From positions 1 to 56,014 of IMG/VR virus record IMGVR_UViG_3300024265_000059: a DNA stretch of 56,014 bases; one strand, written 5' to 3'. A program made the translations under genes and the position numbers. Numbering within the stretch: the first letter of the stretch is position 1; each line of letters begins with the position of its first letter. Positions 42,401 through 56,014 of this stretch are shown here, piece after piece. Source of the stretch: a virus (Duplodnaviria; Caudoviricetes). The notes below the pieces were generated by a model, which searched no databases, had not been told where the DNA came from, and was given only the letters and a program-made list of their open reading frames with translations.

Positions 42401-44554
42401 ACGCGCTAATCTTTCGGCAAAAAATCCACTTACTCCTTCACCATATCTCTTAACGGACTCTTGGATACCAGCTATAGCTTCTTCCCCAAGTGTTCCCACT
42501 GCTAATGTTAGACCTTTAAGATCGCCAGCTTCAATAGGCACTACTTTTATTGAGGCAACTCTTTTTTGGGCAGCATCCACAATCTTACCAAGGTCTAAAT
42601 CTACAGCCTGTTTTGCAGCAAAGGCAAAAGCTGCCATGGCAGTAACACCGATACCTAGAGCGCTGCCGAATTTACCAAGCGCACCTCCCATCCCCTTCAG
42701 AGCTTCGAAGATACTTTTGCCAGAAATCAAAGAGATGGCAACAAGCATAACTCCGACAGCTTGGGTAAATGTTGTAGCCAATACTCCAGCAGAATCTCCA
42801 GCTTCTACAAAAGACTCTTTCATAGTACTGGCAACCAGAACTATTCCGGCTACGGCAGCAAGTTGTCCAATTTTAGAAACTGCTGCTGATTTGGCGGCTG
42901 AAGCAGCTTGAGCACCAGCACCCGCTGCCACTGCCGTACCGGCTCCAGCACCAACCTCAAGACCAGCCTGACCGCCTAATCTGCGCATAATTCGTTCTCT
43001 AGCAAGACCGCCAGCGACGCCGCCTTGAATATTCCCGGCTCCACCTCTCAAAGCCCCGAAGCTGGCAGCAAGACCGCCACCTATACCTGCTGTAGACAAG
43101 AATGACAGAGCCTTCGCGGCAGCACCTATCGAAATAGCCAGCAATTTGAATCCACCAGCGAAACCAATCATTTGTGCCAAGAAAGGAATAACGGGTTTGA
43201 TAACTTCAACCATGGTAATGAATGCTTTACCTGCCGTAACTGCACCCCTAATAAGGGGAATGAAAAGTGGTTCAGCCAAAGTCTGGACAAGCTTGTTGAA
43301 TTCTTGTACCAGAATATTCAGTTGAGCCTGAAGACCAGCCAAACCAACTTCTGCCACCTCACCAAAAGCACCGGCAGATCGATTTGCTGCTCCAAGCGTC
43401 TCATTCAAAACATCAATATTACTAACCAAAGCCAACAAACGACTGATTTGTCGTCTTCCGCCAAGCTTGGTTCCAATTTCGATTTTGTCTTGTATGCTTT
43501 GCGTATCTTTAAGAGCAGCAGCGATGCGTTTGATTGCTTCGACCGGATTGCCAGCTTCGATCGCTTCGGAGATTCTAATACCCTTGCCCTCAAGGAAATC
43601 AACGATCTTTGGGTCAGCAAGACGAGAAGAGATAGTTTTCATGAAAGTACCAATAGTTTCTGCACTCTCTCTTGTAGCTTGCCTAATTGTGGTAAACACA
43701 GCAGCGAATTCTCTAAATGTTCCTCCGATAGCTTCGAACGCAGCACCACCGCGAGAGATACCCTTCGCAATATCTTCCGAAGATGCAGCAAAGTTGTTTG
43801 ACAATTCTGTCATCACATCTAGAACTTCTGTGGTAGTTAATCCTTCTTGGTTGAACTGATTAAGAGCAGCGATAGAACCTTCGATAGCAGCATCCATTGT
43901 TTCGAACGACGGAGTGAGTGGCACCTTAGCAAGTGCGCTCAGTGATTCTTCCAACTCGTCGCCTCGCTGACCTGCCTGTGCAAGAACTTTAGCTACGCGA
44001 GCAATCTCGCTGGCAGAGGTACCAGTGGCAACTGCTAAGTCTAGAATTGTATCTCGCATACCGCTTATCTCGGAATTGCTTTGGTTTGTGATCTGTCGGA
44101 GTTTAAGTATTGCACCATCAAATTCTATAACAGCAGCGGTAGCTTTTCCAAATGCGGCGATTATGGCAAGTGGAGCAGCAGTCGCTGCAACAAACGCAGC
44201 ATACCTTACTCCAGCTAGTTTCATTTTTTGTCCAAAAGTCTCTGCTGCTTTACCAGCCGCTTTGGCACCTGCGGCAGTTTTCTGTAAACCTGGACCAGCT
44301 TTCTTACTGGAAACATTGAGTCTGTTTTGTGCCAAAGTAGCTTTGTTCATAGCCGCCGAGGTTGCAATGAGAGCAGAAGTCTGTGCTTTAGTTGCAGAAG
44401 TAAAGGCTGTTGTACCACCAACGCCTTTGCCGCCAACACCACCAGCAGCACCTCCAACTTGCGCAGCACCCTGTGACTTGGACAAAGCAGCCTTAACCTT
44501 CTCCAAGCCAATGATGTCTTGAATTCTGAGATTAACGTCAAGAACAAATGCCAA
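39440..44554 (-). CDS. Tail tape measure protein (TP901-type core)
   Basis: 1704 aa Ala/Gly-rich helical; EIA.....LAQAG, LD....SNNFA.SS.DI..GI.R.G..F, TRESAETIGT..KTI.SRL. Confidence 0.88.
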   Translation of the reverse strand: MAFVLDVNLRIQDIIGLEKVKAALSKSQGAAQVGGAAGGVGGKGVGGTTAFTSATKAQTSALIATSAAMNKATLAQNRLNVSSKKAGPGLQKTAAGAKAAGKAAETFGQKMKLAGVRYAAFVAATAAPLAIIAAFGKATAAVIEFDGAILKLRQITNQSNSEISGMRDTILDLAVATGTSASEIARVAKVLAQAGQRGDELEESLSALAKVPLTPSFETMDAAIEGSIAALNQFNQEGLTTTEVLDVMTELSNNFAASSEDIAKGISRGGAAFEAIGGTFREFAAVFTTIRQATRESAETIGTFMKTISSRLADPKIVDFLEGKGIRISEAIEAGNPVEAIKRIAAALKDTQSIQDKIEIGTKLGGRRQISRLLALVSNIDVLNETLGAANRSAGAFGEVAEVGLAGLQAQLNILVQEFNKLVQTLAEPLFIPLIRGAVTAGKAFITMVEVIKPVIPFLAQMIGFAGGFKLLAISIGAAAKALSFLSTAGIGGGLAASFGALRGGAGNIQGGVAGGLARERIMRRLGGQAGLEVGAGAGTAVAAGAGAQAASAAKSAAVSKIGQLAAVAGIVLVASTMKESFVEAGDSAGVLATTFTQAVGVMLVAISLISGKSIFEALKGMGGALGKFGSALGIGVTAMAAFAFAAKQAVDLDLGKIVDAAQKRVASIKVVPIEAGDLKGLTLAVGTLGEEAIAGIQESVKRYGEGVSGFFAERLARLGNLFGGEGLITISDSQAQKIIDDIVGSNPELLNEIFRSAVEQFGKSGFLGGIDKLLAQSPNINPESAARLRGALVQALGGIEKVVSRIGQIQIDAKASKLANAIDKANQAFASLHIPTVLSGQLSLLSTSVGKAAKAILQNVNLFDDLSQTLGKGLSLPQLGTEFEDEAVRNILSQGKLAELLGTEQFAQLDSFTRQSLQINDLLNGFFLSLAASLAKADDVAGLVEGKGSLISPFDMINELVEKFAEDSGAGLSPEALDLLKVAALKLSEAVRTGVVSAVALVDDPNAIIKSVQDTLGGNIAITDAIVKVVGDLLNASAQQAARQLEFKKLELESKLQTSVTPEQDIKVLKDLAQLSGFDIDTTALDAGQTSIEQFIVQLAAGGDEFAAIAELFGQSFQEFATAFKAVEDQQATGENANLELGESAVKAGEKVLALSGFMQQLEKIMGTLPESLAKIQAERAKGGSFTAVLGGKPQIGRQTEKQQEAFLKANTKALQDMRIAVEGFKLQTIVETSDIFKKPSDHFVAALADSTKALTLWVSKLTDIDIQRGAEVLTDAKLVSGSVGATRQVSDTSQFAVEQQAVQTRGLQIGVLGAQISDFLDNLRVSAIGLAQETANRIDVGELGGGAAESQELRRLVDELKNVNNLNDVPGLINVLGNLDSTLLAQRTVELGRIQAEDPGAGELQKAAAAMNGATAQLALVQQVIENPSILREPERLQEEISPNFLALLEAMRDIVTQQPTDTPRVFEDMSTNVLEAARVNESAAISTNEAATSFSTATVDILTGASSISEASVAFNEGVGILQTIIDPIRDVLMGPPAPDANTLDEGVKEAMDANTQAIGEVRDEMLGVKEAIREGTEQEAEIAKEQKEEPVEIEGIQDNTDAVTKNSAEFEKTGEDMRGLGEDMDRMATAMADGVGVNVETMSEVTVDVSSISEAAKEFTDEFEAVAIRVARAEINAALASLAAASSNAELASTFESARG

Positions 44555-44569
44555 TTAAATCATCCCCCT

Positions 44570-45508
44570 CTAGTCACTGTTTTCCGCAGCTACTTTGCGT
44601 TTCTTAGACTTTTTCCTTTGTGTAGTAGACTTGGATTTCTTCTTTTTCTTTTCTGCTTTTGGCTTAACGCCTATACCACAGATAAACATATCTTCACCCG
44701 TTTCTGAATCGGTGAATGGTTTTGAAACCTCGACCAACAGATTGCCATGCTCGTCCACTAATCTCCCAAACGTATCAACCATTTCTCCAGCTTCGTTGAT
44801 ATAACGACCATCTCTATTTACTCGACGACCACCCTGATCAGTCATATCGCCATCCTTGGTAATGTATCGACCATCATCGTCGACGAACTTAGCTTCTTTG
44901 AGCCATTTCATCTCGAACATATGATCATGTATATTTGCATCCAGGCCATAGATCATATTGGCCAACGTCTTAGCACCATCGACCACTGCTGCTTCGTCTT
45001 GCCTCTCTACGTACTCATCGTGATTTTTCAGGAACTTAGCTCCGCTCTCTTCAAAAACAAGACAATTGACCAGCAAAAATTCAAAACGGAAATTCTCAGC
45101 TTGAGATTCGACCGTAGTAGAATCAAATTGCTGACGCTTAGCGTGTTTCTCCATAATTAACTGACGCTTCGAAGCCATTTGAATAGCTAGGTCGCGTCCT
45201 TCTAGATTGGTCATTCCACCTTTCTTCAACATCAATTCGTGGGCACGTATTTCTAGAGCTAATTTTTCCACGTCAAGAGCATCTTTCAATGTCCATACTC
45301 CCGTTTTCTCAAGATACTCTTCCAATTCAGCCCTGAGCAATAATCTATTACCACTGTTTTGTGATCCTTTTCTGATCAAACTGGCCATTCGTAAATTGTA
45401 AGCCATATTGGCTTCTTGTCCAATCCTGTTGCCTGGACGAATAATTGCCAACTTTAGTGGCTTGCCATCAACGTCAACTGTTTCAACAACAACTTTTCTA
45501 GTGTCCAT
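44570..45508 (-). CDS. Hypothetical protein upstream of tape measure (possible tail assembly chaperone)
   Basis: Position; GGAGG SD; short D.DG repeats and Lys-rich tail. Confidence 0.55.
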   Translation of the reverse strand: MDTRKVVVETVDVDGKPLKLAIIRPGNRIGQEANMAYNLRMASLIRKGSQNSGNRLLLRAELEEYLEKTGVWTLKDALDVEKLALEIRAHELMLKKGGMTNLEGRDLAIQMASKRQLIMEKHAKRQQFDSTTVESQAENFRFEFLLVNCLVFEESGAKFLKNHDEYVERQDEAAVVDGAKTLANMIYGLDANIHDHMFEMKWLKEAKFVDDDGRYITKDGDMTDQGGRRVNRDGRYINEAGEMVDTFGRLVDEHGNLLVEVSKPFTDSETGEDMFICGIGVKPKAEKKKKKSKSTTQRKKSKKRKVAAENSD

Positions 45509-45866
45509 CTGGTTTTCCTCCAAAATGCATGTGATATCCTTGGAATTCTATATGATGTAAATCTATTTCCATGCCCAATGCACGCGATTGAGCGTTTCCT
45601 TTGTCGAGGATATTCTTCCGAACCTGTTCCCAAATCACCCTATTGGCAATTTGTTCGGGAGTCATTTCCTCTTTTGACAAACTGTGTCCCCAAAGCAAAA
45701 CTCCAAACTGACTTTCGAACTCAGAAAGGGCAGAAATAAAACAAGTCCTGAACTTTTTCTGCGCTATTTTTTTAAGTCGCTCTCTAGAGTCGTGAGCTAT
45801 TCGTCCATTGCGAACATCTTTTTGGATGCGTCGCAATGCTGCTAGTTCTTTTTCTTTCTCAAGCAT
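45498..45866 (-). CDS. Hypothetical protein
   Basis: ORF coupled to its neighbours; start uncertain (45866 or 45902). Confidence 0.55.
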   Translation of the reverse strand: MLEKEKELAALRRIQKDVRNGRIAHDSRERLKKIAQKKFRTCFISALSEFESQFGVLLWGHSLSKEEMTPEQIANRVIWEQVRKNILDKGNAQSRALGMEIDLHHIEFQGYHMHFGGKPDGH

Positions 45867-45876
45867 TCCAGTTTCC

Positions 45877-46953
45877 TTATCTACGATTGATGCTTTTAAC
45901 ATGATTTTTTTGCATCTCCGATAATTGTTGTCTCATTTCTCGTTGACTATCGGGCATATTTTGTTCTGTTATAGAACCTTCCTGTTGTAATATTTTTTGA
46001 CGAGCCCTTATTTGAGCACGAGATTTTGGATCGTTCATATTGTAAACACGTTTCGAACCATCCTGATCAGACATTATGAAAACTTCATTCTTTCCTGGTT
46101 TATTAGGCGTTTTAACACTAGATTCAGCCGATTTACTATCAATCTTTTCTCCCTGATGAATAAACCAAGAATCCAACAAGTCATCGTCTTCGATAATTTG
46201 TTTCGAAGGACGCTCATACGCCGCATAAACCGAATCGTAGATAGTAGACCAGTAAACAAGTTCTCTCTGATTCAATGACCACGATGTAACTGGGTTATCA
46301 AATAAATCATTGGTACATTTTGATATTTCCCAATATGATCTCCATTGTGGCGATCTAGCTAAGCGACGAATATCAGATGGTAACATACGAGACTTACGAT
46401 AGTAATATTCACAAAGTTGAGATATTAATGCTGAATCTGAAAAATTGTCGAAATCATCCGTTGTTGGCCAGAATTTATTACCATCATCATCTTCTGTAAT
46501 CTGGCTCATCAAATATCTTTGTTGACAAAGCTCAGCATGAGATTCGATACTGTTCTGCAATAGCTTATGTTTCGTTTTTAGATGCTCCATCAGAACTTTT
46601 TCGGCACGACGCAAAAGGGATCGTGAGTGTTCAAGTTTTGTCGTATTGAATACAAGACTAAGCAATCCTCGTCTGATCGTGTGAATATCTTTTTGTAGTC
46701 CTTCGATTGTGTCTTCTTGTTCTATGCTCCACTGTTTAAGGTCTATCAAATACGAAAGCAATTCCTGTTCAGAAAACAACTTCAAAATACTACCGCGTCT
46801 TATCTCTAGATTATAAACTGAAACAGACTTGGCTTGCTCTTTGGGTGTGGGGGGTCGGAGTATGAGTGAAATGATTTCTCCCTTGTCGGTGCTGACAACA
46901 GCCGGAATGCATCCCCAGCTTATCGTGGCTATAAGTCGCTCATTGTCGACCAT
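45877..46953 (-). CDS. Hypothetical protein
   Basis: 358-aa ORF; YDSVY...E.P...IIEDDD.LD.W motif. Confidence 0.6.
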   Translation of the reverse strand: MVDNERLIATISWGCIPAVVSTDKGEIISLILRPPTPKEQAKSVSVYNLEIRRGSILKLFSEQELLSYLIDLKQWSIEQEDTIEGLQKDIHTIRRGLLSLVFNTTKLEHSRSLLRRAEKVLMEHLKTKHKLLQNSIESHAELCQQRYLMSQITEDDDGNKFWPTTDDFDNFSDSALISQLCEYYYRKSRMLPSDIRRLARSPQWRSYWEISKCTNDLFDNPVTSWSLNQRELVYWSTIYDSVYAAYERPSKQIIEDDDLLDSWFIHQGEKIDSKSAESSVKTPNKPGKNEVFIMSDQDGSKRVYNMNDPKSRAQIRARQKILQQEGSITEQNMPDSQREMRQQLSEMQKNHVKSINRR

Positions 46954-47028
46954 TTAATTAGCACCTTCCCAGTCCCAAAGTTACAGTGGCACTGTCTATC
47001 CCAGACCTAAGTCTATCCTATCCAATGT

Positions 47029-47038
47029 ATTATACACC
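47029..47038 (-). promoter_or_regulatory. Putative late promoter GGTGTATAAT
   Basis: Directly after terminator 47051-47083, upstream of 46953. Confidence 0.6.
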
Positions 47039-47050
47039 AATATGGCCAAT

Positions 47051-47083
47051 AAAAAAAGGCCGAAAGCTTTCGCTCCCGGCCTT
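47051..47083 (-). terminator. Rho-independent terminator
   Basis: AAGGCCGGGAGC gaaa GCTTTCGGCC followed by a U7 run. Confidence 0.85.
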
Positions 47084-47110
47084 GGATATGTCGTATTTGA
47101 CTAGTCTACC

Positions 47111-47659
47111 TTAGAATCGCCTTTGGTCTTTCGTCTCTGTAGGAACGCACGTAACGATCGCCAAAAGTTCTACACCAGTGGAGAATCCCACACCAACTGC
47201 ATTGTTGGCTTGAGCGGACAAGGTTGTTCTCAAAGAACCGCCCTTCGGAACAGCAGTCCATGTCTGATCCAAACTCACATCGACCCGGTCGCCAGCATTG
47301 GATGGAGCCTTGAACAGGCTCTTGTCTGTATCTGACGATACACCTGAGCAATCAACCGATATTGCTGTATCCCAGACTACCGATGTTGGTGCTGTTGGGG
47401 ATGCATCAACTTCGTTGGAAGTCTGCAATGCCACAGTCAGATTAGACCCTGCGCCTGCAAAACCACTAGCGACAAGCGATACTGCTTGGACTTCAAATGC
47501 AACTACCTTTACGGCGAAAGGACAGTCCTTCGTGAAAATTGCTTCCGTATCGGTTACTGCCGATCCAGACACAGCCGTAGCGGATAGTGTCTTGTACATC
47601 TTGAATGGTTTTGGAGCCGGATTCAGATTCGCTCCCCATGTATCAGTTACTAATGGCAT
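47111..47659 (-). CDS. Putative virion structural protein
   Basis: Monocistronic (promoter 47751, GGAGG SD, terminator); A/S/T/V-rich beta protein. Confidence 0.55.
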   Translation of the reverse strand: MPLVTDTWGANLNPAPKPFKMYKTLSATAVSGSAVTDTEAIFTKDCPFAVKVVAFEVQAVSLVASGFAGAGSNLTVALQTSNEVDASPTAPTSVVWDTAISVDCSGVSSDTDKSLFKAPSNAGDRVDVSLDQTWTAVPKGGSLRTTLSAQANNAVGVGFSTGVELLAIVTCVPTETKDQRRF

Positions 47660-47742
47660 AACTCTCTACCTCCCTAAAAAAGATAAGGCTACTGAGATTC
47701 CGCCCAACGTAGGAACGAAGGCTTAGTAGATTCACCAATGGT

Positions 47743-47751
47743 TTATACACC
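47743..47751 (-). promoter_or_regulatory. Putative late promoter GGTGTATAA
   Basis: Motif copy upstream of 47659. Confidence 0.55.
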
Positions 47752-47815
47752 ACGGGTATTTTTATGGGGGCAGATGCCGTTATTCCTGTGTTTCCCACAT
47801 TGCAAGAGATAATAA

Positions 47816-47889
47816 CAGGCCGAGCAAGGTTCGAACTTGCAACCTCCAGGTTCAAAGCCTGGCGCTCTGTCCAGTTGAGCTATCGGCCC
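47816..47889 (-). tRNA. tRNA-Gln(UUG)
   Basis: Cloverleaf; anticodon arm CCAGG-CTTTGAA-CCTGG; G1.U72 pair. Confidence 0.88.
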
Positions 47890-47892
47890 ATA

Positions 47893-47977
47893 CGGATGGC
47901 GGTGGACTCGAACCACAGACGTTTGACCGCCCCAACCGGTTAGCAACCGGCGGCAGGGCCTTTCTGCTTCACCATCC
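47893..47977 (-). tRNA. tRNA-Ser(GCU)
   Basis: GCCGG-TTGCTAA-CCGGT, long variable arm, G73. Confidence 0.88.
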
Positions 47978-48031
47978 AAAGACCCCATTCTATGGAGTAT
48001 ATATACTCCTTAGAACAAGGTAAATCCAAAA

Positions 48032-48117
48032 CGGAAGATAGAGGAATCGAACCCCCGACGCTCATCACGCCGCCCTCGGGTTCAAACCGAGTTTCCGACC
48101 ATTCAGAGGTATCTTCC
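48032..48117 (-). tRNA. tRNA-Ser(UGA)
   Basis: CTCGG-TTTGAAC-CCGAG, long variable arm, G73. Confidence 0.88.
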
Positions 48118-48126
48118 AGTGCGCAC

Positions 48127-48160
48127 AAAAAAACCGGACAATCCCAAGGGACCATCCGGT
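48127..48160 (-). terminator. Intrinsic terminator (attenuator) 9 nt upstream of tRNA-Ser(UGA)
   Basis: ACCGGAUGGUCC cuug GGAUUGUCCGG followed by U7. Confidence 0.85.
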
Positions 48161-48189
48161 TCTGATTCTGTGTTTTAGTGTACTCGAAT

Positions 48190-48261
48190 CTACACAGCAT
48201 CCCCCAGACGGCCAAGAGACCGTTGACTACTCGATTGGGATGACTGCTGTCGATTTTTCAT
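48190..48261 (-). CDS. Ser/Gln-rich leader peptide MKNRQQSSQSSSQRSLGRLGDAV (putative attenuator leader)
   Basis: GGAG SD 6 nt before ATG; 6 Ser + 4 Gln among codons 5-15; stop about 30 nt before the terminator. Confidence 0.75.
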   Translation of the reverse strand: MKNRQQSSQSSSQRSLGRLGDAV

Positions 48262-48337
48262 CTTGTTCTCCAAAAAAAACCAGCCCTTGATGCACGTAAC
48301 CCAATTGAGAAAGAGGTGCGGCTGGTGTGTTACTATG

Positions 48338-48346
48338 TTATACACC
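48338..48346 (-). promoter_or_regulatory. Putative promoter GGTGTATAA upstream of the Ser/Gln leader
   Basis: Motif copy immediately 3' of tRNA-Ile. Confidence 0.55.
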
Positions 48347-48348
48347 AA

Positions 48349-48424
48349 TGCGCCTAGATGGATTTGAACCACCGACATCACGCTTATCAGGCGTGCGCTC
48401 TGAGCCAGACTGAGCTACAGGCAC
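48349..48424 (-). tRNA. tRNA-Ile(GAU)
   Basis: CACGC-CTGATAA-GCGTG. Confidence 0.9.
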
Positions 48425-48429
48425 TTCAA

Positions 48430-48502
48430 CGGGCCGGGAAGGAGTCGAACCCTCAACCAACGGCTTTGGAAACCGACGCTCTGCCAATTAAGCTACCGAC
48501 CC
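48430..48502 (-). tRNA. tRNA-Trp(CCA)
   Basis: CGGT-TTCCAAA-GCCG, G73. Confidence 0.88.
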
Positions 48503-48530
48503 ACTATCTTGTTCGTTCAAAAAAACACAA

Positions 48531-48604
48531 CGGGCCGGGTGGGACTCGAACCCACGATAGCCGGGTTAGAAACCCAGTCCTTTGTCCATCTAAGGTACCA
48601 GCCC
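48531..48604 (-). tRNA. tRNA-Arg(UCU)
   Basis: CTGGG-TTTCTAA-CCCGG. Confidence 0.88.
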
Positions 48605-48608
48605 AACA

Positions 48609-49697
48609 TTATTCGACATTATCCCGTTCTAATTTGTTATTGTGAGGACGAATCCTCTTCATCACATAGCTGTCGACCTTGTGATAGTGACTATCGAGTA
48701 AAGCAAACATGGCAGGCGTATGCTTGACTTTTTGTGCCTTGGCTGCAAAATCGCATCTTGGAACTCGATCCATAATTCCGCCGAATTCTTCGAAATAGAT
48801 GTCATCAAACTCCTTATGAATTTCACTATGTAATGTCTGATACTGCTTCTCTAGTACTTCAACAATACTGTTAAGAAGATCGTGGTACTCTATATCCACT
48901 TGACTCCAAACGTCTTTTGTCACTTCTCCATCTACCATGTTGTTCCACATGACTAGCGGAGTAAGGTTGCTCAACAGATGATGCCGCCTGAAATAATCTT
49001 CCGACTTGATTTTGACACGAAAGCCATTGGTAAATCTGATAACAAAACCTTCTTGCTCATTACCCGGAATGGTCTTCAATGATCCACGACACGCGCCTAA
49101 CCAATTTTGATCATAGGACTTTACGAGTGTAAAGCCGTAATCGCTGGCAAAACTTGCTACTTCGCACCAACGATATTCTTTGCCGGTGTGTCTATTATAC
49201 GCAGAAAGCAAAACCAAATCCTCACGATCTCCGTAGTCAACAACAATTTTCGTGATTGGGCATATCAATTCGAAAACTAGAGTAACCTCATCTGGGAATC
49301 CATCAAGATCGTAATTATCATCTAGAAATTTCGAAGCCCATATCGCTCCAGGACTAGTGAATGAACCGCGAGAAGCAACCTTGTGCTGACCAGCATGACG
49401 ATAAAGAGAGCCAAACCATCCATCCTCTTTTTTGAATATTCTGAACCCATCGTGCCATGGTAGATTACGCTCCTGAGTGTCTGTTCTCTCGTTCATGTTG
49501 AAGAACTTGGGGAAGGTCTGTGCCACAACCTCTCCTGTCTGGCGATTGAAGATTATACCTCTGCTGTTTATCGTAGTTTCATCCCACTGTTTGCAGTGAT
49601 TGGTGTAGTTGTAGATACGAAGATCATCAAGATCAGCACATCTCAGCACGCCTTCTGCAACCAGACGATCTCGTATTTCTATTTGTGGGTGTTTCAT
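48609..49697 (-). CDS. RNA ligase, T4 Rnl1 family
   Basis: YNY, SRGIIF, FPKFFN, motif I KEDG, ASRGSF.S, FELI.P..IVVDY, EGFVI, RVKIK..DY. Confidence 0.88.
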   Translation of the reverse strand: MKHPQIEIRDRLVAEGVLRCADLDDLRIYNYTNHCKQWDETTINSRGIIFNRQTGEVVAQTFPKFFNMNERTDTQERNLPWHDGFRIFKKEDGWFGSLYRHAGQHKVASRGSFTSPGAIWASKFLDDNYDLDGFPDEVTLVFELICPITKIVVDYGDREDLVLLSAYNRHTGKEYRWCEVASFASDYGFTLVKSYDQNWLGACRGSLKTIPGNEQEGFVIRFTNGFRVKIKSEDYFRRHHLLSNLTPLVMWNNMVDGEVTKDVWSQVDIEYHDLLNSIVEVLEKQYQTLHSEIHKEFDDIYFEEFGGIMDRVPRCDFAAKAQKVKHTPAMFALLDSHYHKVDSYVMKRIRPHNNKLERDNVE

Positions 49698-49707
49698 GTC
49701 TTTTTTC

Positions 49708-50187
49708 CTAGACTTTCCCTGAAATCAATTGGTCTATTTCTTCAATTGCGATATTCGTCATTTTCTGCAATTCTTTGTCATCGCAATCTTTGTTTTTTTT
49801 TCTGAAGTTTCTTCTGATATTTCGGACAGATACCTTGGCGTCTTCTCCAAGTTTGTTCATCTTTGAAGCAACTTCTCGTCTGGTATCTCCAGAAATAAGC
49901 GGTATGTTTACCACCACGGTTGTCTTAGAAAATTTGTACGCATCAAAACCTTGCTTCTTCAATTCTTCCTCTACCTTCGCCATTATCGATGGATCATATG
50001 GTGTTATAGATATTCTTCTGTCTTTTTGGTTGATCAAGCACAGATGTTCAAGCGGTGTCTGTTGACCACTGTAATCTATTGTCACAGTAGAAATTAGATC
50101 GTCATTGATATTGCCGCCCATTCCTTTAAGTTGATCTCTAAGAAAATCAACAGTTTTCTTCATGAGCGATCTGGTTTTTTCCATCAC
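49708..50187 (-). CDS. frr: Ribosome recycling factor (shortened)
   Basis: M.K..D.L..., I.YSGQ.TPL, I.I.PYD, IP.ISG..R, E.AKVSVRNIRR, ELQK.T...I.EID. Confidence 0.85.
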   Translation of the reverse strand: MMEKTRSLMKKTVDFLRDQLKGMGGNINDDLISTVTIDYSGQQTPLEHLCLINQKDRRISITPYDPSIMAKVEEELKKQGFDAYKFSKTTVVVNIPLISGDTRREVASKMNKLGEDAKVSVRNIRRNFRKKNKDCDDKELQKMTNIAIEEIDQLISGKV

Positions 50188-50197
50188 AAACCTCCAA

Positions 50198-50270
50198 TGG
50201 GTCGGGTGGGATTCGAACCCACGGCCCCCCGCTTAAAAGGCGGAAGCTCTGTCCACTGAGCTACCAACCC
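50198..50270 (-). tRNA. tRNA-Lys(UUU)
   Basis: TCCGC-CTTTTAA-GCGGG. Confidence 0.9.
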
Positions 50271-50273
50271 ATA

Positions 50274-50347
50274 TGGGAATGGTGAGATTCGAACTCACGA
50301 CCCGCTGGTTAAGAGCCAGCCGCTCTGATCCGCTGAGCTACATTCCC
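50274..50347 (-). tRNA. tRNA-Lys(CUU)
   Basis: GCTGG-CTCTTAA-CCAGC. Confidence 0.9.
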
Positions 50348-50350
50348 GAA

Positions 50351-50421
50351 TACCAGTGACAGGAGTCGAACCTGCGCCTCCTGATCCACAGTCAGGCGTT
50401 CTGCCGTTAAACCACACCGGC
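50351..50421 (-). tRNA. tRNA-His(GUG)
   Basis: CCTGA-CTGTGGA-TCAGG; A73, no encoded G-1. Confidence 0.88.
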
Positions 50422-50429
50422 TACGACAA

Positions 50430-50514
50430 TGGGCAGGATAGGACTCGAACCTACACGCCCTGTTAAGGGACCGGGTTTACAGCCCGGCGAGCCAGCCAAT
50501 TGCTCAACCTACCC
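50430..50514 (-). tRNA. tRNA-Tyr(GUA)
   Basis: CCGGG-CTGTAAA-CCCGG, long variable arm. Confidence 0.9.
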
Positions 50515-50739
50515 TTATGACTCAACCACCAATTGTTCTGGCATGGCCAGAAAAACACTCCCACCAGTAGAGACTATATAAACAATTTTGTTTCCGTTAC
50601 AACCTCTTGTGGAGTAATTGATCCATCCTTCGAGTATAACCGTTTTGTAACCAGGAGAATAATGTCCTGGCGCATGTTTTTGATACACGAATGATTCGCC
50701 AACAATTAATTCATCACGTTTCGCTTGTCTGTATTCCAT
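50515..50739 (-). CDS. Hypothetical protein
   Basis: 74-aa ORF filling the inter-tRNA space, GAGAG SD-like. Confidence 0.5.
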   Translation of the reverse strand: MEYRQAKRDELIVGESFVYQKHAPGHYSPGYKTVILEGWINYSTRGCNGNKIVYIVSTGGSVFLAMPEQLVVES

Positions 50740-50810
50740 GTCAACTCTCTACTGCAAAACAACTTTCGAAATCAAACCAGTTTAGTGTATGTAAGAATTC
50801 CCATGATTTT

Positions 50811-51182
50811 TTAACCTCTCTTGAGTTTATTCTGCTCGCGAATTTTTATTGATTGACGTTTCACAGCCTTCCAAACCCAATCTGGTAACCACGGATAATC
50901 GACCTGAAATTCCTCAATAAAAAACAAATATTCCGCTATCCCCTCTGCCCACATTTTAATATGAAGATTCAAATACCCCTTAGCGAGAAGTACATTCCTA
51001 AGTAAATCAGATTCTCTACAAGGAACATTCTTGCCATCTGAGTCCTTGAAAGCAAAAGCTTCTATTGCAGAGTACCCATCTTTGTGTTCATAAACAAATG
51101 GCAGTTCGCCCATCACCCGCATACGAGAGTTAACCAAAACATATAGATTAAAGTTGCGACGTACCTTGTGACCAATTTTCAT
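50811..51182 (-). CDS. Hypothetical protein
   Basis: Start moved to ATG 51182 because the longer ORF overlaps tRNA-Leu(CAA). Confidence 0.55.
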   Translation of the reverse strand: MKIGHKVRRNFNLYVLVNSRMRVMGELPFVYEHKDGYSAIEAFAFKDSDGKNVPCRESDLLRNVLLAKGYLNLHIKMWAEGIAEYLFFIEEFQVDYPWLPDWVWKAVKRQSIKIREQNKLKRG

Positions 51183-51202
51183 ACTTATACCGACTTCCTT
51201 AA

Positions 51203-51286
51203 TGCCTAAGACTGGATTCGAACCAGTACGCCCTTTCGGACACGGGTTTTTGAAACCCGCGCGTCTGCCAGTTCCGCCACATAGGC
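51203..51286 (-). tRNA. tRNA-Leu(CAA)
   Basis: CGGGT-TTCAAAA-ACCCG, long variable arm, A73. Confidence 0.9.
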
Positions 51287-51290
51287 TCAA

Positions 51291-51363
51291 TGCCCCGAAT
51301 AGGATTCGAACCTATACTGACATGGTTCTAAACCATGTTCCTCTGCCGTTGGGATACCGGGGC
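51291..51363 (-). tRNA. tRNA-Leu(UAG), short variable loop
   Basis: CATGG-TTTAGAA-CCATG, 5-nt variable loop, A73. Confidence 0.82.
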
Positions 51364-51465
51364 TCATCTCCGATCCTTACTGTTTTTCCTAACAAAATTT
51401 CGGACAGCTAAGACAAATTCGTGTTCAGTATATCTTTTGGTCACATCACACACTCACGAATAAAA

Positions 51466-51549
51466 TGCCTGCGCTGGGAGTCGAACCCAGAAACCCTTGC
51501 GGGCACGAGGGTTTAAGCCCCGCTCCTTTGCCTGTTTGGACACACAGGC
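51466..51549 (-). tRNA. tRNA-Leu(UAA)
   Basis: CGGGG-CTTAAAC-CCTCG, long variable arm, A73. Confidence 0.88.
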
Positions 51550-51557
51550 TACAACGA

Positions 51558-51758
51558 CTAAAACCAAGTTCTTTTTGTTTTCCCAGAAATCAAATCAAAA
51601 CCTTCACCACATTCATGACATTTCGTGCAATGCCAATACGTTGGATTGACCACCCAAACTGTTGGATAACAACGATGATTTCTGTGATACCACGAACATC
51701 GAAGCCATTTGTGCAAAAATCTTGTAATACGTTTCAAACAATTATCACCATATTTCAC
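51558..51758 (-). CDS. Small Cys/His-rich hypothetical protein
   Basis: GGAGG SD; C...H...C.KC pattern. Confidence 0.55.
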   Translation of the reverse strand: MKYGDNCLKRITRFLHKWLRCSWYHRNHRCYPTVWVVNPTYWHCTKCHECGEGFDLISGKTKRTWF

Positions 51759-51771
51759 AATTCACCTCCAA

Positions 51772-51844
51772 TGGAAGGGAAGGGACTCGAACCCTCGACA
51801 TCTGGCTTGCAAAGCCAGCGCTCTCCCAACTGAGCTACCCCCCC
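51772..51844 (-). tRNA. tRNA-Ala(UGC)
   Basis: CTGGC-TTTGCAA-GCCAG; G3.U70 identity pair. Confidence 0.92.
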
Positions 51845-52410
51845 TATTTATCCAATTCGATCCTTCTTTTCTTGCTGTGCCTCTTTTTCTTCTGTGACAC
51901 ATAGCCTTTTGGTATAGGCTCGTCAATTACTTTGTTTACTGCTTCGATTGCCTTTTCCATATTCTCTTTGATATCTACTGTGGTGATATCATCGACATCT
52001 ATCGTAGTTGTAACCGGAAGCATGGTGTCTTCGATTTGCTCTTTCGAAAGCCCCCGATTAGGTATCACACCACTACCAGATATTGGAATGGCATGGATAC
52101 CTGGAGAGAAAAATGGTTGTTGATGATCATTTTTGAACACCTTGAAAATCATACCATCTGGTATGTATTGACTTTCAATTATCTTGACTCCATACATTCT
52201 CATTTGTCCATCTGGATCGGCACCGCCGTTACTTCTGTGGAACATCTTCTGCACTTCATACAAATCATTGGAGCTAATCAAAAAAGCTTCTACGTTATCA
52301 AGCTGTTGACCTTGTTGCTCAATCTCTCTTATGGTATCATGAAATTGCTTACGTATTCGATGCGTAGCCGCCTCAATTTCCGGATCGGAACTATGGTACA
52401 TATCAGCCAT
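51844..52410 (-). CDS. Hypothetical protein
   Basis: Start set at ATG 52410, just after the stop of ORF 52412-52573. Confidence 0.55.
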   Translation of the reverse strand: MADMYHSSDPEIEAATHRIRKQFHDTIREIEQQGQQLDNVEAFLISSNDLYEVQKMFHRSNGGADPDGQMRMYGVKIIESQYIPDGMIFKVFKNDHQQPFFSPGIHAIPISGSGVIPNRGLSKEQIEDTMLPVTTTIDVDDITTVDIKENMEKAIEAVNKVIDEPIPKGYVSQKKKRHSKKRRIELDK

Positions 52411-52411
52411 T

Positions 52412-52573
52412 TTACCCATCCCACTGTTCGTGTAGTCTGTCATCGCAGCGAGCACATTGCCATCCACTCATGGTAGAAGATCGATTGAAATCGGTTTCCC
52501 AATTATGCATATGAAGACAGATATAATTGCATCCAGCAAACCAACAAATCATCCTACGAATCATTCTCTTCAT
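52412..52573 (-). CDS. Small Cys-rich protein (53 aa; not in the ORF track)
   Basis: GGAG SD; MKRMIRRMICWFAGC...QCARC. Confidence 0.55.
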   Translation of the reverse strand: MKRMIRRMICWFAGCNYICLHMHNWETDFNRSSTMSGWQCARCDDRLHEQWDG

Positions 52574-52586
52574 GTCTCTTCTCCAA

Positions 52587-52659
52587 CTTACCCGAAGGGA
52601 TTCGAACCCTTGACCTAGCGGTTAACAGCCGCTCGCTCTATCCCCTGAGCTACGGGCAA
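52587..52659 (-). tRNA. tRNA-Asn(GUU)
   Basis: AGCGG-CTGTTAA-CCGCT; U1-A72, G73. Confidence 0.9.
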
Positions 52660-52662
52660 GAC

Positions 52663-52735
52663 TCGGGGTGAAAGGACTCGAACCTTCAACTTCGCGGCCC
52701 CAAACCGCGCACTCTTCCAATTGAGCTACACCCCG
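52663..52735 (-). tRNA. tRNA-Pro(UGG)
   Basis: CGCGG-TTTGGGG-CCGCG; C1-G72, A73. Confidence 0.92.
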
Positions 52736-53034
52736 TTTTTCACTAACTTCAAAAAACCATCAAGCGTTGAACATGTTGAATTGACAGTACACAATTTCTC
52801 AAACTCCTGGCAATGATCATCTATCAAAACGTCAGCGATTGGTTTTACGTGAGATTCTTTATCTCTATAGTCAAATCCCATCAACTGAGCGATAACTTGG
52901 CCATCATCGTGACAAGACCAAACAATAACATGATGACCACCTTTCTTAGCCCAATCCTGAAATCTGGCAAATTGAGGATGCAAATTGCCTCTTATTATAA
53001 CTGTGTCATCAAGGTCCAGAAGGATTCGCATCAA
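52726..53034 (-). CDS. Minimal HAD-superfamily phosphatase-like protein
   Basis: ILLDLDDTVI motif I, VIVWS motif II, K...DVLIDD motif IV. Confidence 0.7.
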   Translation of the reverse strand: MMRILLDLDDTVIIRGNLHPQFARFQDWAKKGGHHVIVWSCHDDGQVIAQLMGFDYRDKESHVKPIADVLIDDHCQEFEKLCTVNSTCSTLDGFLKLVKNGV

Positions 53035-53669
53035 TCTACTCCGATTACTTCAGTTTCGATTCCACGTTTCCTAGCTTCCGTCACAATATGCTTAGTCCCT
53101 TTAGACTTACTCAGATCGTCGTGGAAGGCAATCACAAGACTCGGTTTTGTATCCAGCATCTTGATGTTCCTTCTCGGTCCTGCTGACAACCCATACTTCT
53201 TCCAAGCTGCCCAGAACGTAACAACTTCAAAACCCATATTCAAAGCAAGGTTACGAGCCATGGTATCAACACCATCGCAACCGCCCTCAACTATAATAGT
53301 ATCAGACGGAAGATCGAAAAGTCGCTTTCTTATCACCTCAACTCCATCGTGTGACCAATCTCTACTGCCGCAAATAACTACCTTCATGGTTTTCTCCAAA
53401 TATTCAGCGATCACATCTCCGTGACAAGCTTCCGGCTTACAAAAACAACCAAGCCGCTTTCCCTTCAACTCTTTTGTTCTACGTGTAAATTCAGGATCAA
53501 TTTTCAATCGATTCAGAAAATACTTGCGATAGAGTTCTATGACCTTCTTTCTACCACCATCTTGGGCAACGCTGAAAGGATTGCCGAAATATCCATCATG
53601 GCCGTTCCCCGCCCTGCCAATGTATTCATCGTATTCTTGTCGACGAATATTAACGACGGTTGTCTTCAT
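53031..53669 (-). CDS. DUF4326 + DUF2493(SLOG)-like fusion protein
   Basis: YIGR....FGNPF...LKGKRLGCFCKP.ACHGDVI; then VVICGSRDW, GG..GVD, W.KYG.SAGP.RN.KML, AFH....SKGT. Confidence 0.75.
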   Translation of the reverse strand: MKTTVVNIRRQEYDEYIGRAGNGHDGYFGNPFSVAQDGGRKKVIELYRKYFLNRLKIDPEFTRRTKELKGKRLGCFCKPEACHGDVIAEYLEKTMKVVICGSRDWSHDGVEVIRKRLFDLPSDTIIVEGGCDGVDTMARNLALNMGFEVVTFWAAWKKYGLSAGPRRNIKMLDTKPSLVIAFHDDLSKSKGTKHIVTEARKRGIETEVIGVD

Positions 53670-53685
53670 GGTCCGATATTCCTAC

Positions 53686-53710
53686 AAAAAAACTCGCGAT
53701 TTCTCGCGAG
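53686..53710 (-). terminator. Intrinsic terminator (attenuator) ahead of the DUF4326/tRNA/frr/ligase block
   Basis: CUCGCGA gaaa UCGCGAG followed by U7. Confidence 0.88.
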
Positions 53711-53743
53711 CAAAAGTCTTATCTGAAATCGTTCACAGAGAGA

Positions 53744-53833
53744 CTAGCCCGCATCACCACCAGGCGCGCGCAGATTGAGTACGGCTGGGGCTAATGGATA
53801 ATTCCGTCCGGGTTTTCTATACAAGCTTCTCAC
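53744..53833 (-). CDS. Leader peptide MRSLYRKPGRNYPLAPAVLNLRAPGGDAG (putative attenuator leader; not in the ORF track)
   Basis: AGGAGG SD 8 nt before GTG; lies between promoter and terminator. Confidence 0.7.
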   Translation of the reverse strand: MRSLYRKPGRNYPLAPAVLNLRAPGGDAG

Positions 53834-53854
53834 GATTCATTCCTCCTACATATC

Positions 53855-53883
53855 ATTATACCCCAAACCAACAGGTTTGTGCC
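53855..53883 (-). promoter_or_regulatory. Promoter GGCACAAAC-N13-GTATAAT
   Basis: Third copy of the bipartite motif. Confidence 0.72.
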
Positions 53884-53908
53884 AAGAAAAATGAAAAAAA
53901 ACTGAAAA

Positions 53909-53983
53909 TAGCGGGAGAGGGATTCGAACCCTCGACCTCCGGGTTATGAGCCCGATGGGCTAACCAAACTGCCCTACCCCGCA
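53909..53983 (-). tRNA. Initiator tRNA-fMet(CAU)
   Basis: GGG/CCC anticodon stem, loop CTCATAA, unpaired 1:72 (U/U). Confidence 0.9.
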
Positions 53984-54047
53984 TCAAGTTGCCGCTGATA
54001 CGGCTCAGCGGCCAAGCCTTTATGGTTCCCCTGCCTCTGGCAGACGA

Positions 54048-54170
54048 TTACAGAAAAAACCAACAACCGGTTCCGATAACCAAAAGAGCGGCTACGATCC
54101 ATTTCCAATACATCAAAAAATAGATCGGCCACCTGATGGGCCACGGCAAATCATCAATTGACCAACTCAT
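54048..54170 (-). CDS. Small membrane protein (40 aa; not in the ORF track)
   Basis: GGAGG SD; MSWSIDDLPWPIRWPIYFLMYWKWIVAALLVIGTGCWFFL. Confidence 0.55.
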   Translation of the reverse strand: MSWSIDDLPWPIRWPIYFLMYWKWIVAALLVIGTGCWFFL

Positions 54171-54252
54171 CCTTTACCTCCTAATCGTTCTTCCATCCGC
54201 CCTCTGGGGCGTGTGATCGTCCTTATCAGACCTTCACAGTGGCATTTGTCAC

Positions 54253-54573
54253 TCATTTCGATTCGTCCCCTTTCATGTGCTTGAACATCTCGATCTCGGC
54301 CAATCTCTTATCGGCTCCCTTGCGAGTCTCAAAACAGCCAAGCTTTTTGCCCTTCTTGCTGTATATGCAGTACGGCTTACTTTTCGTGCCATCCTTACGG
54401 ATCACAGCTTTTGCTGATTCCAATGCATCTTCCGTCGCCTTCTCAAGTTCTTCATTCCAGTCAGTCACAGGACCACCTGCCTTTTGTCGTCTTGCCAGAA
54501 TCTCTTTTATCGATAGATAATACTTGTACGGCCTCTTGCCTCTTCTCTCTGCGTGCGTATGCCTTGTGCTCAT
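54253..54573 (-). CDS. Hypothetical basic protein
   Basis: VIRK...YCIYSKKGKKLGC..T...A.KRL..IE.FKH. Confidence 0.6.
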   Translation of the reverse strand: MSTRHTHAERRGKRPYKYYLSIKEILARRQKAGGPVTDWNEELEKATEDALESAKAVIRKDGTKSKPYCIYSKKGKKLGCFETRKGADKRLAEIEMFKHMKGDESK

Positions 54574-55007
54574 ATGACATAGTCTACGACATAGTCGTCT
54601 TGTATGCTCTTGAAAATATCGATTACGATACGATCGGGCATAAACAACACCTTGTCTCTCATTTGGACTTCTTTGACAAGAAACGGGGCGTCGAAAACCA
54701 AACCACCAAGCATGTATCCCGATTGGACGGCTTGTTCGTATGTGTCGAAGAAGCCATGCGAAGCCCTTCCCTTAACTAGGACGAATTTCCCAGCATGTTT
54801 TTCAAACCACCACATTCGATTTTCTTCAAAAAACTTCAGTTCTGTCCCAAGAACAGACAGAGCACATCTTTTCTTGTGCTCGCTAATTGAGGAAACTGGT
54901 ATCTTCAGGAAACAAAAGTGACACTTTATACAGCATGGCCCCATGTGTCTAGTCTCCATCCCATCTTGGTTTCTGTGGCAATCGCATCGGCATTCTTCGC
55001 TTCCCAT
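54570..55007 (-). CDS. Hypothetical protein (Cys-rich N-terminus; DUF5678-like C-terminus)
   Basis: FF..N...L/F..H.GKFVLVKG....GFFDT...A. Confidence 0.55.
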   Translation of the reverse strand: MGSEECRCDCHRNQDGMETRHMGPCCIKCHFCFLKIPVSSISEHKKRCALSVLGTELKFFEENRMWWFEKHAGKFVLVKGRASHGFFDTYEQAVQSGYMLGGLVFDAPFLVKEVQMRDKVLFMPDRIVIDIFKSIQDDYVVDYVI

Positions 55008-55086
55008 ATCATATACCTCTCAGACTACAAGCAGGACGACAAAAGTCAGCAGCGGCCACTACAAGAGGAATTAGGCCCATTACAGA

Positions 55087-55368
55087 TCATCTTACGCAAT
55101 TGCACAATTGCTGTCCTTCTGATGGTGATGGTTTTCCGCAAAGCCTACAATATTCTGGTTCGTCTAAGCCTTCTTCTGAGTATCTAAGACAGAAACTACA
55201 AGGTGGAGATATATGACACGAACAACAATCATCGTTCCATCTTAAATCCACGCAGGCTATGGCGTCAGCATAATCGTTACTTGATGAGCCAACTGCACTA
55301 CGACAATCGCATTGAACAACGGAAGTAAATAACTGTATTTTTCCAGTGTCTCTGCAATCTTTACACAT
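55087..55368 (-). CDS. Cys-rich Zn-binding hypothetical protein
   Basis: CKDC..TG...C.C; CSCHISPPCSFC; CRLC...C..C. Confidence 0.55.
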   Translation of the reverse strand: MCKDCRDTGKIQLFTSVVQCDCRSAVGSSSNDYADAIACVDLRWNDDCCSCHISPPCSFCLRYSEEGLDEPEYCRLCGKPSPSEGQQLCNCVR

Positions 55369-55838: not shown

Positions 55839-55843
55839 TCTGT

Positions 55844-56014
55844 TTACTTGAATGTTACAGAATCTAATGCTGAGACAAAACCGGGTTCGAATTTTTCTGC
55901 ATTATCGGTAAATAATTCCCAACAAACATCAAAACCGGACACACACGCAGAGACATCCCATCCGACCACATTGCTCGTCACGCCTTCAAGGAGCGTACAA
56001 CCACCACCCAAGAG
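55844..56014 (-). CDS. Hypothetical protein, 3' end only (truncated by window edge)
   Basis: Open frame from the window end to TAA at 55844. Confidence 0.4.
   Translation of the reverse strand, partial: LLGGGCTLLEGVTSNVVGWDVSACVSGFDVCWELFTDNAEKFEPGFVSALDSVTFK

Follow-up and report, generated by a model that had tools for sequence, protein, structure and literature searches.

A conserved Ser/Gln-codon leader and competing RNA helices upstream of phage tRNA-Ser and tRNA-Gln genes suggest ribosome-mediated attenuation of a viral tRNA cluster

In the 56,014-nucleotide (nt) stretch of IMG/VR virus record IMGVR_UViG_3300024265_000059 (Duplodnaviria; Caudoviricetes; this whole stretch is hereafter 'the window'), a 230-nt spacer on the minus strand (48348-48119) has the gene for the transfer RNA (tRNA) tRNA-Ile(GAU) on one side and that for tRNA-Ser(UGA) on the other, and we propose that this spacer probably constitutes a trp/his-type, ribosome-mediated leader-peptide attenuator which gates transcriptional read-through into the genes for tRNA-Ser(UGA), tRNA-Ser(GCU) and tRNA-Gln(UUG). 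It carries a short open reading frame (ORF) that is led by a Shine-Dalgarno (SD) sequence and built around a run of Ser and Gln codons, followed by an intrinsic terminator and then by three tRNA genes serving these two amino acids; among related phages the ORF is under codon-level constraint, and mutually exclusive RNA helices are conserved along with it. Judging from these comparisons, the element is real, conserved and unusual, and all structural features of ribosome-mediated attenuators that can be tested were found, in silico only. That the ORF is translated, that its translation is coupled to transcription and responds to tRNA supply, and which polymerase transcribes it, we infer from this layout.

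The ORF and its GGAG motif had been proposed in an initial annotation of the window, and reading of the minus strand recovers both (Table 1). Codons 5-15 are CAG CAG TCA TCC CAA TCG AGT AGT CAA CGG TCT, i.e., Ser or Gln occupies 10 of 11 positions, and all nine positions of codons 5-13, with every Gln codon and all but one of the six Ser codons represented. When all 70,207 stop-free stretches of 11 codons in the six frames were inspected, only four contained at least nine Ser plus Gln codons; these four overlap and all lie in the leader ORF. A density of 10 in 11 for any two residues recurs at just one other locus of the window, an Ile/Gly-rich segment. Because the leader holds the sole 11-codon stretch with at least nine Ser plus Gln codons in six frames of 56 kilobases (kb), its composition is not attributable to chance. 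The remaining parts of the proposed layout hold as well: the promoter-like motif is present upstream, an intrinsic terminator (stem 48163-48130 plus U7, -20.1 kcal/mol, 11 G/C-rich pairs extended by A-U pairs) lies directly in front of the tRNA genes, with its U tract 8 nt from tRNA-Ser(UGA) by the ARAGORN start or 9 nt if the tRNA starts at G, and the three downstream genes are called by ARAGORN with the anticodons named above.

Homologues were gathered along several routes. Nine related IMG/VR records (G001 to G009) were reached via neighbour proteins, a search with the RNA ligase giving four and an alignment of a neighbouring 358-amino-acid (aa) protein giving seven loci, five of them new. 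A 260-nt query spanning the leader and tRNA-Ser found strong matches in four records (G001, G002, G005, G009) and matched over a 26-nt tail only in G007 and G008, with nothing significant in G003, G004 and G006 (for G004 a 15-nt match at chance level, E = 0.13). A metagenome pattern scan anchored on the putative antiterminator strand ('region 2', see below) and on the approach to the terminator returned 12 stretches, eight of which are true homologues, including two duplicates (L029 = L027; L032 = L019); the other four were rejected as chance matches in unrelated G+C-rich or coding DNA. Two further IMG/VR scans added L058, whose contig is as long as that of L035, and a degenerate variant (L059 = L060). 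The comparisons below rest on 10 distinct intact leaders (the window, L003, L014, L019, L026, L027, L033, L035, L036 and L037), all from related phages, the nine besides the window being uncultivated contigs. Two further leaders are decayed: L002 lacks the 5' half, and in L059/L060 the leader is fused in frame to an upstream ORF and reads ...QQLQSSHDQRSKDRLG. In a collection of phage genomes, blastn with 47500-49000 matched tRNAs only and tblastn with the 358-aa protein matched nothing; that collection thus contains no cultured member related to the lineage. The leader-core pattern had no match in GTDB genome contigs, so these gave no clue to the host.

Across the intact leaders the ATG is kept in 10/10, an SD-like purine block lies 6-7 nt 5' of it in all nine homologues for which upstream sequence is available, and the stop falls at codon 24 in nine leaders and at codon 21 in L003. 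The peptides follow the pattern M-(K/N)-x-(Q/R/F/K)-Q-(Q/K)-S-S-Q-S-S-(S/N)-Q-R-x-x-x-R-L-G-..., with the QQSSQSSSQ core in 10/10. The minimum numbers of changes at the first, second and third codon positions are 1/1/7 in the core (codons 5-14), 3/5/6 in codons 2-4, 4/4/3 in codons 15-17 and 3/3/3 in codons 18-24. All seven third-position changes in the core are synonymous, Gln codons flipping between CAA and CAG and Ser10 being written TCG, TCC, TCT or TCA; for at least seven of nine changes falling at one given position, our own binomial arithmetic, made without phylogenetic correction, gives p ~0.008. Since codons 9-13 lie in a predicted RNA loop, both by the helices of the alignment and by RNAalifold, their restriction to third-position variation does not stem from base pairing. 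Variation in codons 15-17, by contrast, follows an RNA hairpin. Both remaining sense frames of the leader carry stops, and antisense coding was rejected because every antisense frame is closed in at least one of the 10 copies. On this comparative evidence, the conserved feature appears to be a translated run of Gln and Ser codons, as a regulatory leader would require, the remainder of the peptide being free or set by RNA pairing.

The second layer of conservation concerns RNA structure, which we quantified as the percentage of paired cells in the 10-sequence alignment. The terminator is paired in 98.5% of cells, with two pairs compensatory (changed on both sides). Upstream, a small hairpin formed by codons 13-15 with codons 17-18 is paired in every cell (100%) and likewise shows compensation at two pairs (C-G/U-G/U-A and C-G/U-A); an invariant UCCCA:UGGGG helix encloses it (RNAalifold columns 47-51 with 81-85; 49 of 50 cells paired). 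Both of these sequestering helices pair region 2 with segments inside the Ser/Gln run. The competing arrangement pairs region 2 with the terminator 5' arm over 10 base pairs (columns 74-83 with 128-137; 97.0% of cells), the region-2 segment GGCCGUCUGG finding its counterpart in that arm. Taken together with the inner CUGUGU/ACACAG helix, this antiterminator is paired in 97.5% of cells, compared with 27-40% in slid controls. In 10/10 homologues the 5' arm forms its best duplex at the same site (ending at nt 59; -15 to -21 kcal/mol), and this duplex is equalled or beaten by 0-11 of 500 dinucleotide shuffles per homologue; the three variable pairs are each changed on one side, and the changes stay compatible with pairing. 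Predicted domain energies span -16 to -24 kcal/mol for the terminator, -11 to -28 kcal/mol for the antiterminator and -12 to -21 kcal/mol for the sequestering state. Of the two alternative pairings drawn in the initial annotation, both are found in the folds, while the 1:2 helix did not survive in its fixed register, which accounts for only 77% of cells, other copies being shifted by 2 nt; the 1:2 core common to the copies is UCCCA with UGGGG plus the small hairpin.

Folding under constraint links these helices to the position of a ribosome. With a 30-nt ribosome footprint masked, the transcript was folded as far as the terminator loop, i.e., before the 3' arm (arm 4), so as to mimic the moment of decision, and the antiterminator was scored as formed when at least 7 of its 10 pairs were in the minimum-energy structure. 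With the ribosomal A site at codons 4-13 the antiterminator formed in 9/10 homologues, the exception being L035, in which codons 6-8 did not give it; once the A site had reached codon 14 or a later one, no homologue (0/10) formed it. In these models Gln13, which is the last Gln codon and the last control codon, would be the last stall position leaving region 2 free; the boundary is partly geometric, though the Ser/Gln run ends exactly there. Without a ribosome, the same pre-arm-4 fold gave the sequestered state in 6/10, and the full-length minimum-free-energy (MFE) structures combined the sequestered state with the terminator in 9/10 homologues among the folds listed, L027 not being among them. 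The check on constrained folds suggested along with the initial annotation thus came out as an attenuator would require.

At least one cognate tRNA gene follows nine of the ten intact leaders. In the window, L033 and L037 the leader precedes all three tRNAs called by ARAGORN; in L026 it precedes both tRNA-Ser genes, tRNA-Gln being cut by the contig end; in L019, L003, L027 and L036 it is followed by uncalled Ser-tRNA-like sequences with a UGA anticodon loop and by a called tRNA-Gln, to which L027 adds a tRNA-Ser(GCU) with an internal deletion; and in L035 only tRNA-Gln follows. L014, which lies in the complete genome G005, retains the intact leader and terminator with a 25-nt stump of tRNA-Ser. 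The complete relatives G004 (5 tRNAs) and G006 (3 tRNAs) have neither tRNA-Ser nor tRNA-Gln nor leader. At the homologous place G006 and G007 carry a different, plain terminator and no Ser/Gln ORF; behind this terminator come T-run-(G/A)TGCGCAT and, immediately next, the motif TTGTGTATAA that precedes the 182-aa gene. In front of its terminator, G007 also has the Cys-rich ORF that is found upstream of the leader elsewhere. These loci suggest that the Ser/Gln ORF travels with the tRNA module, and since the module sits between a terminator and the next promoter, its position would be silent unless the terminator is read through. The degenerate L059/L060 has lost both tRNA-Ser genes and three leader Ser codons, a joint loss that is suggestive, albeit a single case to which L035 and L014 point the opposite way. 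The comparison of homologous loci called for at the outset spoke for the attenuation layout: SD, ORF and terminator are kept, and 9/10 leaders have a cognate tRNA, though in G005/L014 and L035 codons and tRNAs no longer correspond. With the conserved leaders, the maintained helices and the absence of the ORF from relatives without these tRNAs, we consider the layout supported.

No comparable leader with cognate codons was detected at other tRNA groups, either in the window or in 61 loci comprising 658 kb and 173 tRNA calls. One candidate, 'VVVRIHSRV' in L032, proved to be a translated tRNA-Leu. Another, a 74-aa ORF of the window (50515-50739, minus strand) that contains YQKHAPGHYSPGYK and ends at tRNA-Tyr, has 5/9 Tyr/His/Lys codons and was dismissed as being within chance by estimate; the next four tRNAs there are for Tyr, His and Lys, and there is no terminator.

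How the element might operate can be outlined along the lines of the classical attenuators. No promoter dedicated to the three tRNA genes lies between the terminator and the first of them, and transcription would start upstream, in most relatives from the promoter that serves the small Cys-rich ORF and otherwise from a motif of the TGGTGTATAA type. A ribosome would load at GGAG/ATG and then read nine to ten consecutive Gln and Ser codons. With ample charged Ser- and Gln-tRNAs it would reach codons 14-24 and cover region 2, the 3:4 terminator would form, and the tRNA genes would stay off; with no ribosome on the leader, UCCCA (Ser8/Gln9) and the small hairpin (codons 13-15) would keep region 2 occupied, and the outcome would again be the terminator. 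Slow decoding of Ser or Gln codons would stall the ribosome at codon 13 or earlier, a position at which it would melt both sequestering helices and set region 2 free to pair with the 5' arm before the 3' arm is transcribed, so that the polymerase would enter the three tRNA genes. Their charged products would speed up translation of the leader and restore termination, amounting to negative feedback on tRNA supply. According to a passage in PMC3082878, the pheA attenuator is de-repressed 6-7 fold when one of the two tRNA-Phe genes is lost; leader attenuators can hence respond to tRNA dosage as well as to amino-acid supply, which renders a self-regulating tRNA loop mechanistically plausible.

More tentatively, and with somewhat less than even confidence, we envisage that the element serves as a homeostat of tRNA supply, switched on when the Ser and Gln tRNAs of the host become limiting during infection, i.e., as an inducible counter-measure rather than a constitutive supplement. 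The trigger could be host shut-off, the demand of late proteins richer in Ser and Gln, or defence nucleases that target tRNAs. The large minus-strand ORFs, which belong to the tail module, contain 7.8% Ser and 4.0% Gln versus 6.0% and 3.1% for plus-strand ORFs, and they favour CAA, TCT, AGT and TCA; this usage fits demand-driven control and is no proof of it. Recent work has linked phage tRNAs to the evasion of tRNA-cleaving defences, and given that an Rnl1-type RNA ligase is encoded next to the tRNA genes, it is tempting to speculate that such defences are the trigger.

Several observations weigh against attenuation of the three tRNA genes. L035 keeps every Ser codon in its leader with both tRNA-Ser genes gone, and G005/L014 has lost all three tRNAs, with no homologue of them elsewhere in its genome. 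The antiterminator has no pair that is changed on both sides, and the invariance of its 5' strand is partly forced by the pattern used for the metagenome search. In L003 and L026, a G-to-A change is balanced by a second change in the terminator but produces a C.A mismatch within the antiterminator, and the antiterminator domains of these two are weak (-11.2 and -16.7 kcal/mol). In the pre-arm-4 fold, the antiterminator forms even without a ribosome in 4/10 homologues (L014, L026, L033 and L037). Under standard wobble rules the Ser8 codon UCC is decoded neither by a UGA nor by a GCU anticodon. The codon-position test counts only nine inferred changes among related sequences, and, if the hairpin with U8 situated upstream of the SD in the window (Table 1) does terminate, it would stop transcription ahead of the leader.

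Some of these findings also fit a rival account, according to which the ORF encodes an ordinary small protein and ends an upstream operon as its last cistron, ahead of an ordinary terminator, with the tRNAs expressed by leaky read-through or from another promoter and the codon match due to coincidence or to the function of the peptide. In most relatives the leader ORF indeed lies directly 3' of a Cys-rich ORF of ~64 aa (for which no Pfam family was found at threshold and of which the window fragment contains no homologue), with the leader SD overlapping the stop of that ORF; a leader with terminator persists in G005/L014 without any of the three tRNAs, L035 retains Ser codons without tRNA-Ser, and relatives lacking the ORF also have a terminator at the same place. 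Another promoter might be sought in a weak sigma-70-like site between the two tRNA-Ser genes (48024-47996), though such sites occur at chance frequency (11 found, 11.0 expected). We nonetheless consider this account unlikely. Constraint at the peptide level is confined to the Ser/Gln run, codons 15-17 and 21-22 being free or bound by pairing and L003 stopping three codons early; the sole stretch of this kind in 56 kb lies 8-9 nt upstream of exactly the cognate tRNAs; and relatives without these tRNAs or remnants of them lack the ORF as well. Moreover, a plain operon-end terminator would not predict conserved complementarity to an antiterminator, and here a conserved strand does compete for the 5' arm.

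The same structural evidence that argues for a Ser/Gln attenuator would also be compatible with a translation-dependent switch having another input or output, sensing general translation capacity or acting in trans through the terminated RNA of ~135 nt or the peptide. The retention of the leader in G005 without tRNAs would fit such an independent role, and work on the rhizobial trp attenuator describes its products rnTrpL and peTrpL as able to act in trans. A general sensor, however, needs no nine to ten codons for just the two amino acids that the next three genes serve, no target is known, and the module is absent from relatives without these tRNAs, so that we give this possibility little credence. 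Far more improbable still is a non-coding structured spacer or insulator with a spurious ORF. The spacer does fold better than its shuffles (z = -3.9; 0/200 shuffles equally good), and several of its helices are conserved, yet ATG and stop are kept in 10/10 and the SD in 9/9, the 1/1/7 distribution of changes in the core, whose third-position changes are all synonymous, falls in a segment that is largely loop by prediction, and both the other sense frames and the antisense frames carry stops. Consistently, an Rfam cmscan of 44000-56014 with E up to 1 found only tRNAs and sub-threshold YrlA/plastid matches, none of them in 48119-48348.

Table 1. Coordinates of the candidate attenuator and of the tRNA genes it may control (window positions)
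Feature	Position	Strand	Remarks
Promoter-like motif TGGTGTATAA	48338-48347	-	right after tRNA-Ile(GAU); putative promoter
Hairpin + U8	48272-48326	-	MFE fold of the spacer; specific to the window
Shine-Dalgarno GGAG	48268-48271	-	6 bases 5' of ATG
Leader ORF MKNRQQSSQSSSQRSLGRLGDAV	48190-48261	-	23 codons + stop; ATG at 48261, stop 48192-48190
Control codons 5-15	48217-48249	-	Gln x4, Ser x6, Arg x1; conserved core = codons 5-13
Region 1a, UCCCA	48236-48240	-	Ser8/Gln9 codons; partner UGGGG in region 2 (RNAalifold consensus)
Region 1b, 5' strand of small hairpin	48218-48223	-	Gln13-Arg14-Ser15; partner 48213-48208, 6 pairs
Region 2, GGCCGUCUGGGG	48202-48213	-	held by 1a/1b, or antiterminator with terminator 5' arm
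Intrinsic terminator	48127-48163	-	5' arm 48163-48149, loop CUUG, 3' arm 48144-48130, U7 48133-48127
tRNA-Ser(UGA)	48031-48118	-	ARAGORN
tRNA-Ser(GCU)	47893-47977	-	ARAGORN
tRNA-Gln(UUG)	47815-47890	-	ARAGORN; Rfam tRNA 69.1 bits
Next promoter-like motif TGGTGTATAA	47743-47752	-	precedes the 182-aa gene; downstream limit of the tRNA unit

The motif TGGTGTATAA occurs in three exact copies in the window (47030-47039 in addition to the two in Table 1), all on the minus strand and intergenic, which precede the leader, the 182-aa gene and the 358-aa gene. By our own arithmetic ~0.1 exact copies are expected; with up to one mismatch there are 10 matches versus 4.0 expected. The variants TTGTGTATAA and GTTGTATATAA precede the same genes in relatives, where motifs of this family also precede the leader, and the family is probably a promoter class by which this phage group expresses tail-module genes and the leader. 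In L036, an insert of ~230 nt between the terminator and tRNA-Ser contains a near-consensus TTGACA-17-TACAAT promoter and an ORF for a hydrophobic protein of 47 aa; the insert would uncouple the tRNAs from the attenuator in that phage, and the promoter suggests that the sigma-70 RNA polymerase of the host is used. The hairpin with U8 of the window, CCAGCC...GGCUGG with an inner GCAC/GUGC helix, lies between TGGTGTATAA and GGAG and is not found at the corresponding place in L003, L014 and L019. It looks like a second intrinsic terminator within the 5' untranslated region of the leader itself, and could terminate the ligase/tRNA unit that lies upstream, stabilise the 5' end or be a relic.

The window is a fragment from an uncultivated virus, ~34% complete by the collection's estimate, and has a G+C content of 43%. 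On its minus strand, 17 tRNA genes (47815-53983) are interspersed with genes for an RNA ligase of the T4 Rnl1 type (48609-49697, minus strand) and a homologue of ribosome recycling factor (49708-50187, minus strand), and downstream of the tRNA array follows the tail module with a tape-measure-like protein of 1704 aa. The ligase is of the tRNA-repair type, and its stop lies 3 nt from tRNA-Arg(UCU). The two tRNA-Ser genes of the window match in Rfam only tRNA-Sec, below threshold; the tRNA-Ser(UGA)-like sequences of L003 (5463-5552), L019 (2278-2361), L027 and L036 have an intact-looking acceptor stem, are not called by ARAGORN and stay below the Rfam tRNA threshold. The window, L019 and L027 share a spacer of ~50 nt that separates their two tRNA-Ser genes (47978-48030, minus strand, in the window) and has the perfect palindrome GGAGTATATATACTCC; this spacer is absent from L026, L033 and L037 and may be an inserted element or an internal promoter. 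The region of tRNAs and leader is a hotspot of insertion and deletion across the family (L002, L014, L027, L035, L036, L059). In L002 (5052-5640), for example, an insertion behind the RNA ligase gene brings in an ORF for a Cys/His-rich protein of 141 aa (no Pfam match); after this ORF a tRNA, of which only the 5' half is present, runs into the remaining 3' half of the leader, and the terminator and a truncated tRNA-Ser come next. Elsewhere in the window, a DNA polymerase (phrog_405) is encoded in two ORFs (3740-6115 and 16739-18691, both plus strand) with ~10 kb between them, and a 212-aa protein encoded inside the tRNA array (53031-53669, minus strand) combines DUF4326 with a SLOG/YAcAr (DprA-like) domain.

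Like the enterobacterial leaders (trpL, hisL, thrL, leuL, pheL, ilv), the element consists of (i) a small ORF behind an SD, in which regulatory codons form a run, (ii) an intrinsic terminator downstream of it, (iii) an exclusive antiterminator whose 5' strand lies beside the leader stop, and (iv) a sequestering helix that overlaps the control codons. The sensing of more than one amino acid has precedents in the thr and ilv leaders. Unlike in the enterobacterial attenuators, however, the targets are tRNA genes and not biosynthetic enzymes, so that the product would feed back directly on the sensor, the setting is a phage, and the control codons are for Ser and Gln; we know of no other leader with Ser/Gln control codons. 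In 44000-56014, no covariance model of the Rfam leader families (Trp_leader, His_leader, Thr_leader, Leu_leader and the like) matched. The attenuator of E. coli pheST, with its pheM leader, is a case in which leader-peptide attenuation governs a translation component serving the same amino acid as the leader codons, yet there the target is a synthetase mRNA, a single amino acid is sensed, and the system is bacterial. T-box riboswitches share with the element the choice between terminator and antiterminator according to the state of a specific tRNA, and hence a role in aminoacyl-tRNA homeostasis; they bind uncharged tRNA directly, however, without any translated ORF, whereas here an SD-led ORF is conserved under codon constraint, and no Rfam T-box match was found in 44000-56014. 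As in the tRNA arrays of T4, T5 and other large phages, the tRNA genes are clustered among small ORFs, here next to an Rnl1-type ligase; the presence of the putative switch on one sub-cluster only sets the array apart from these. Full-text literature searches, with subscription-only papers and supplements outside their scope, yielded no description of leader-peptide attenuation of tRNA genes in either phages or bacteria, nor any of regulated read-through into phage tRNAs, and the passages retrieved by term look-ups in PMC2965389, PMC10264068 and PMC3082878 likewise contain none for tRNA genes or phage tRNAs.

If our proposal is correct, the element would be the first described case of attenuation of tRNA genes and the first Ser/Gln leader peptide. 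The tRNA genes of phages are usually viewed as constitutive supplements to codon usage and, lately, as replacements for tRNAs destroyed by host defences, and the control of their expression has hardly been studied. An attenuator at this place would represent a self-correcting sensor of decoding capacity for given codons, in which the regulated product is the very molecule that is measured. The cassette of 135 nt would also offer a simple experimental handle on the question of when specific tRNAs become limiting in the course of infection, and the succession of SD, cognate-codon ORF, terminator and tRNA suggests a search image for other tRNA arrays of phages and plasmids. A textbook mechanism would thereby gain target genes of a new class and a place in viruses.

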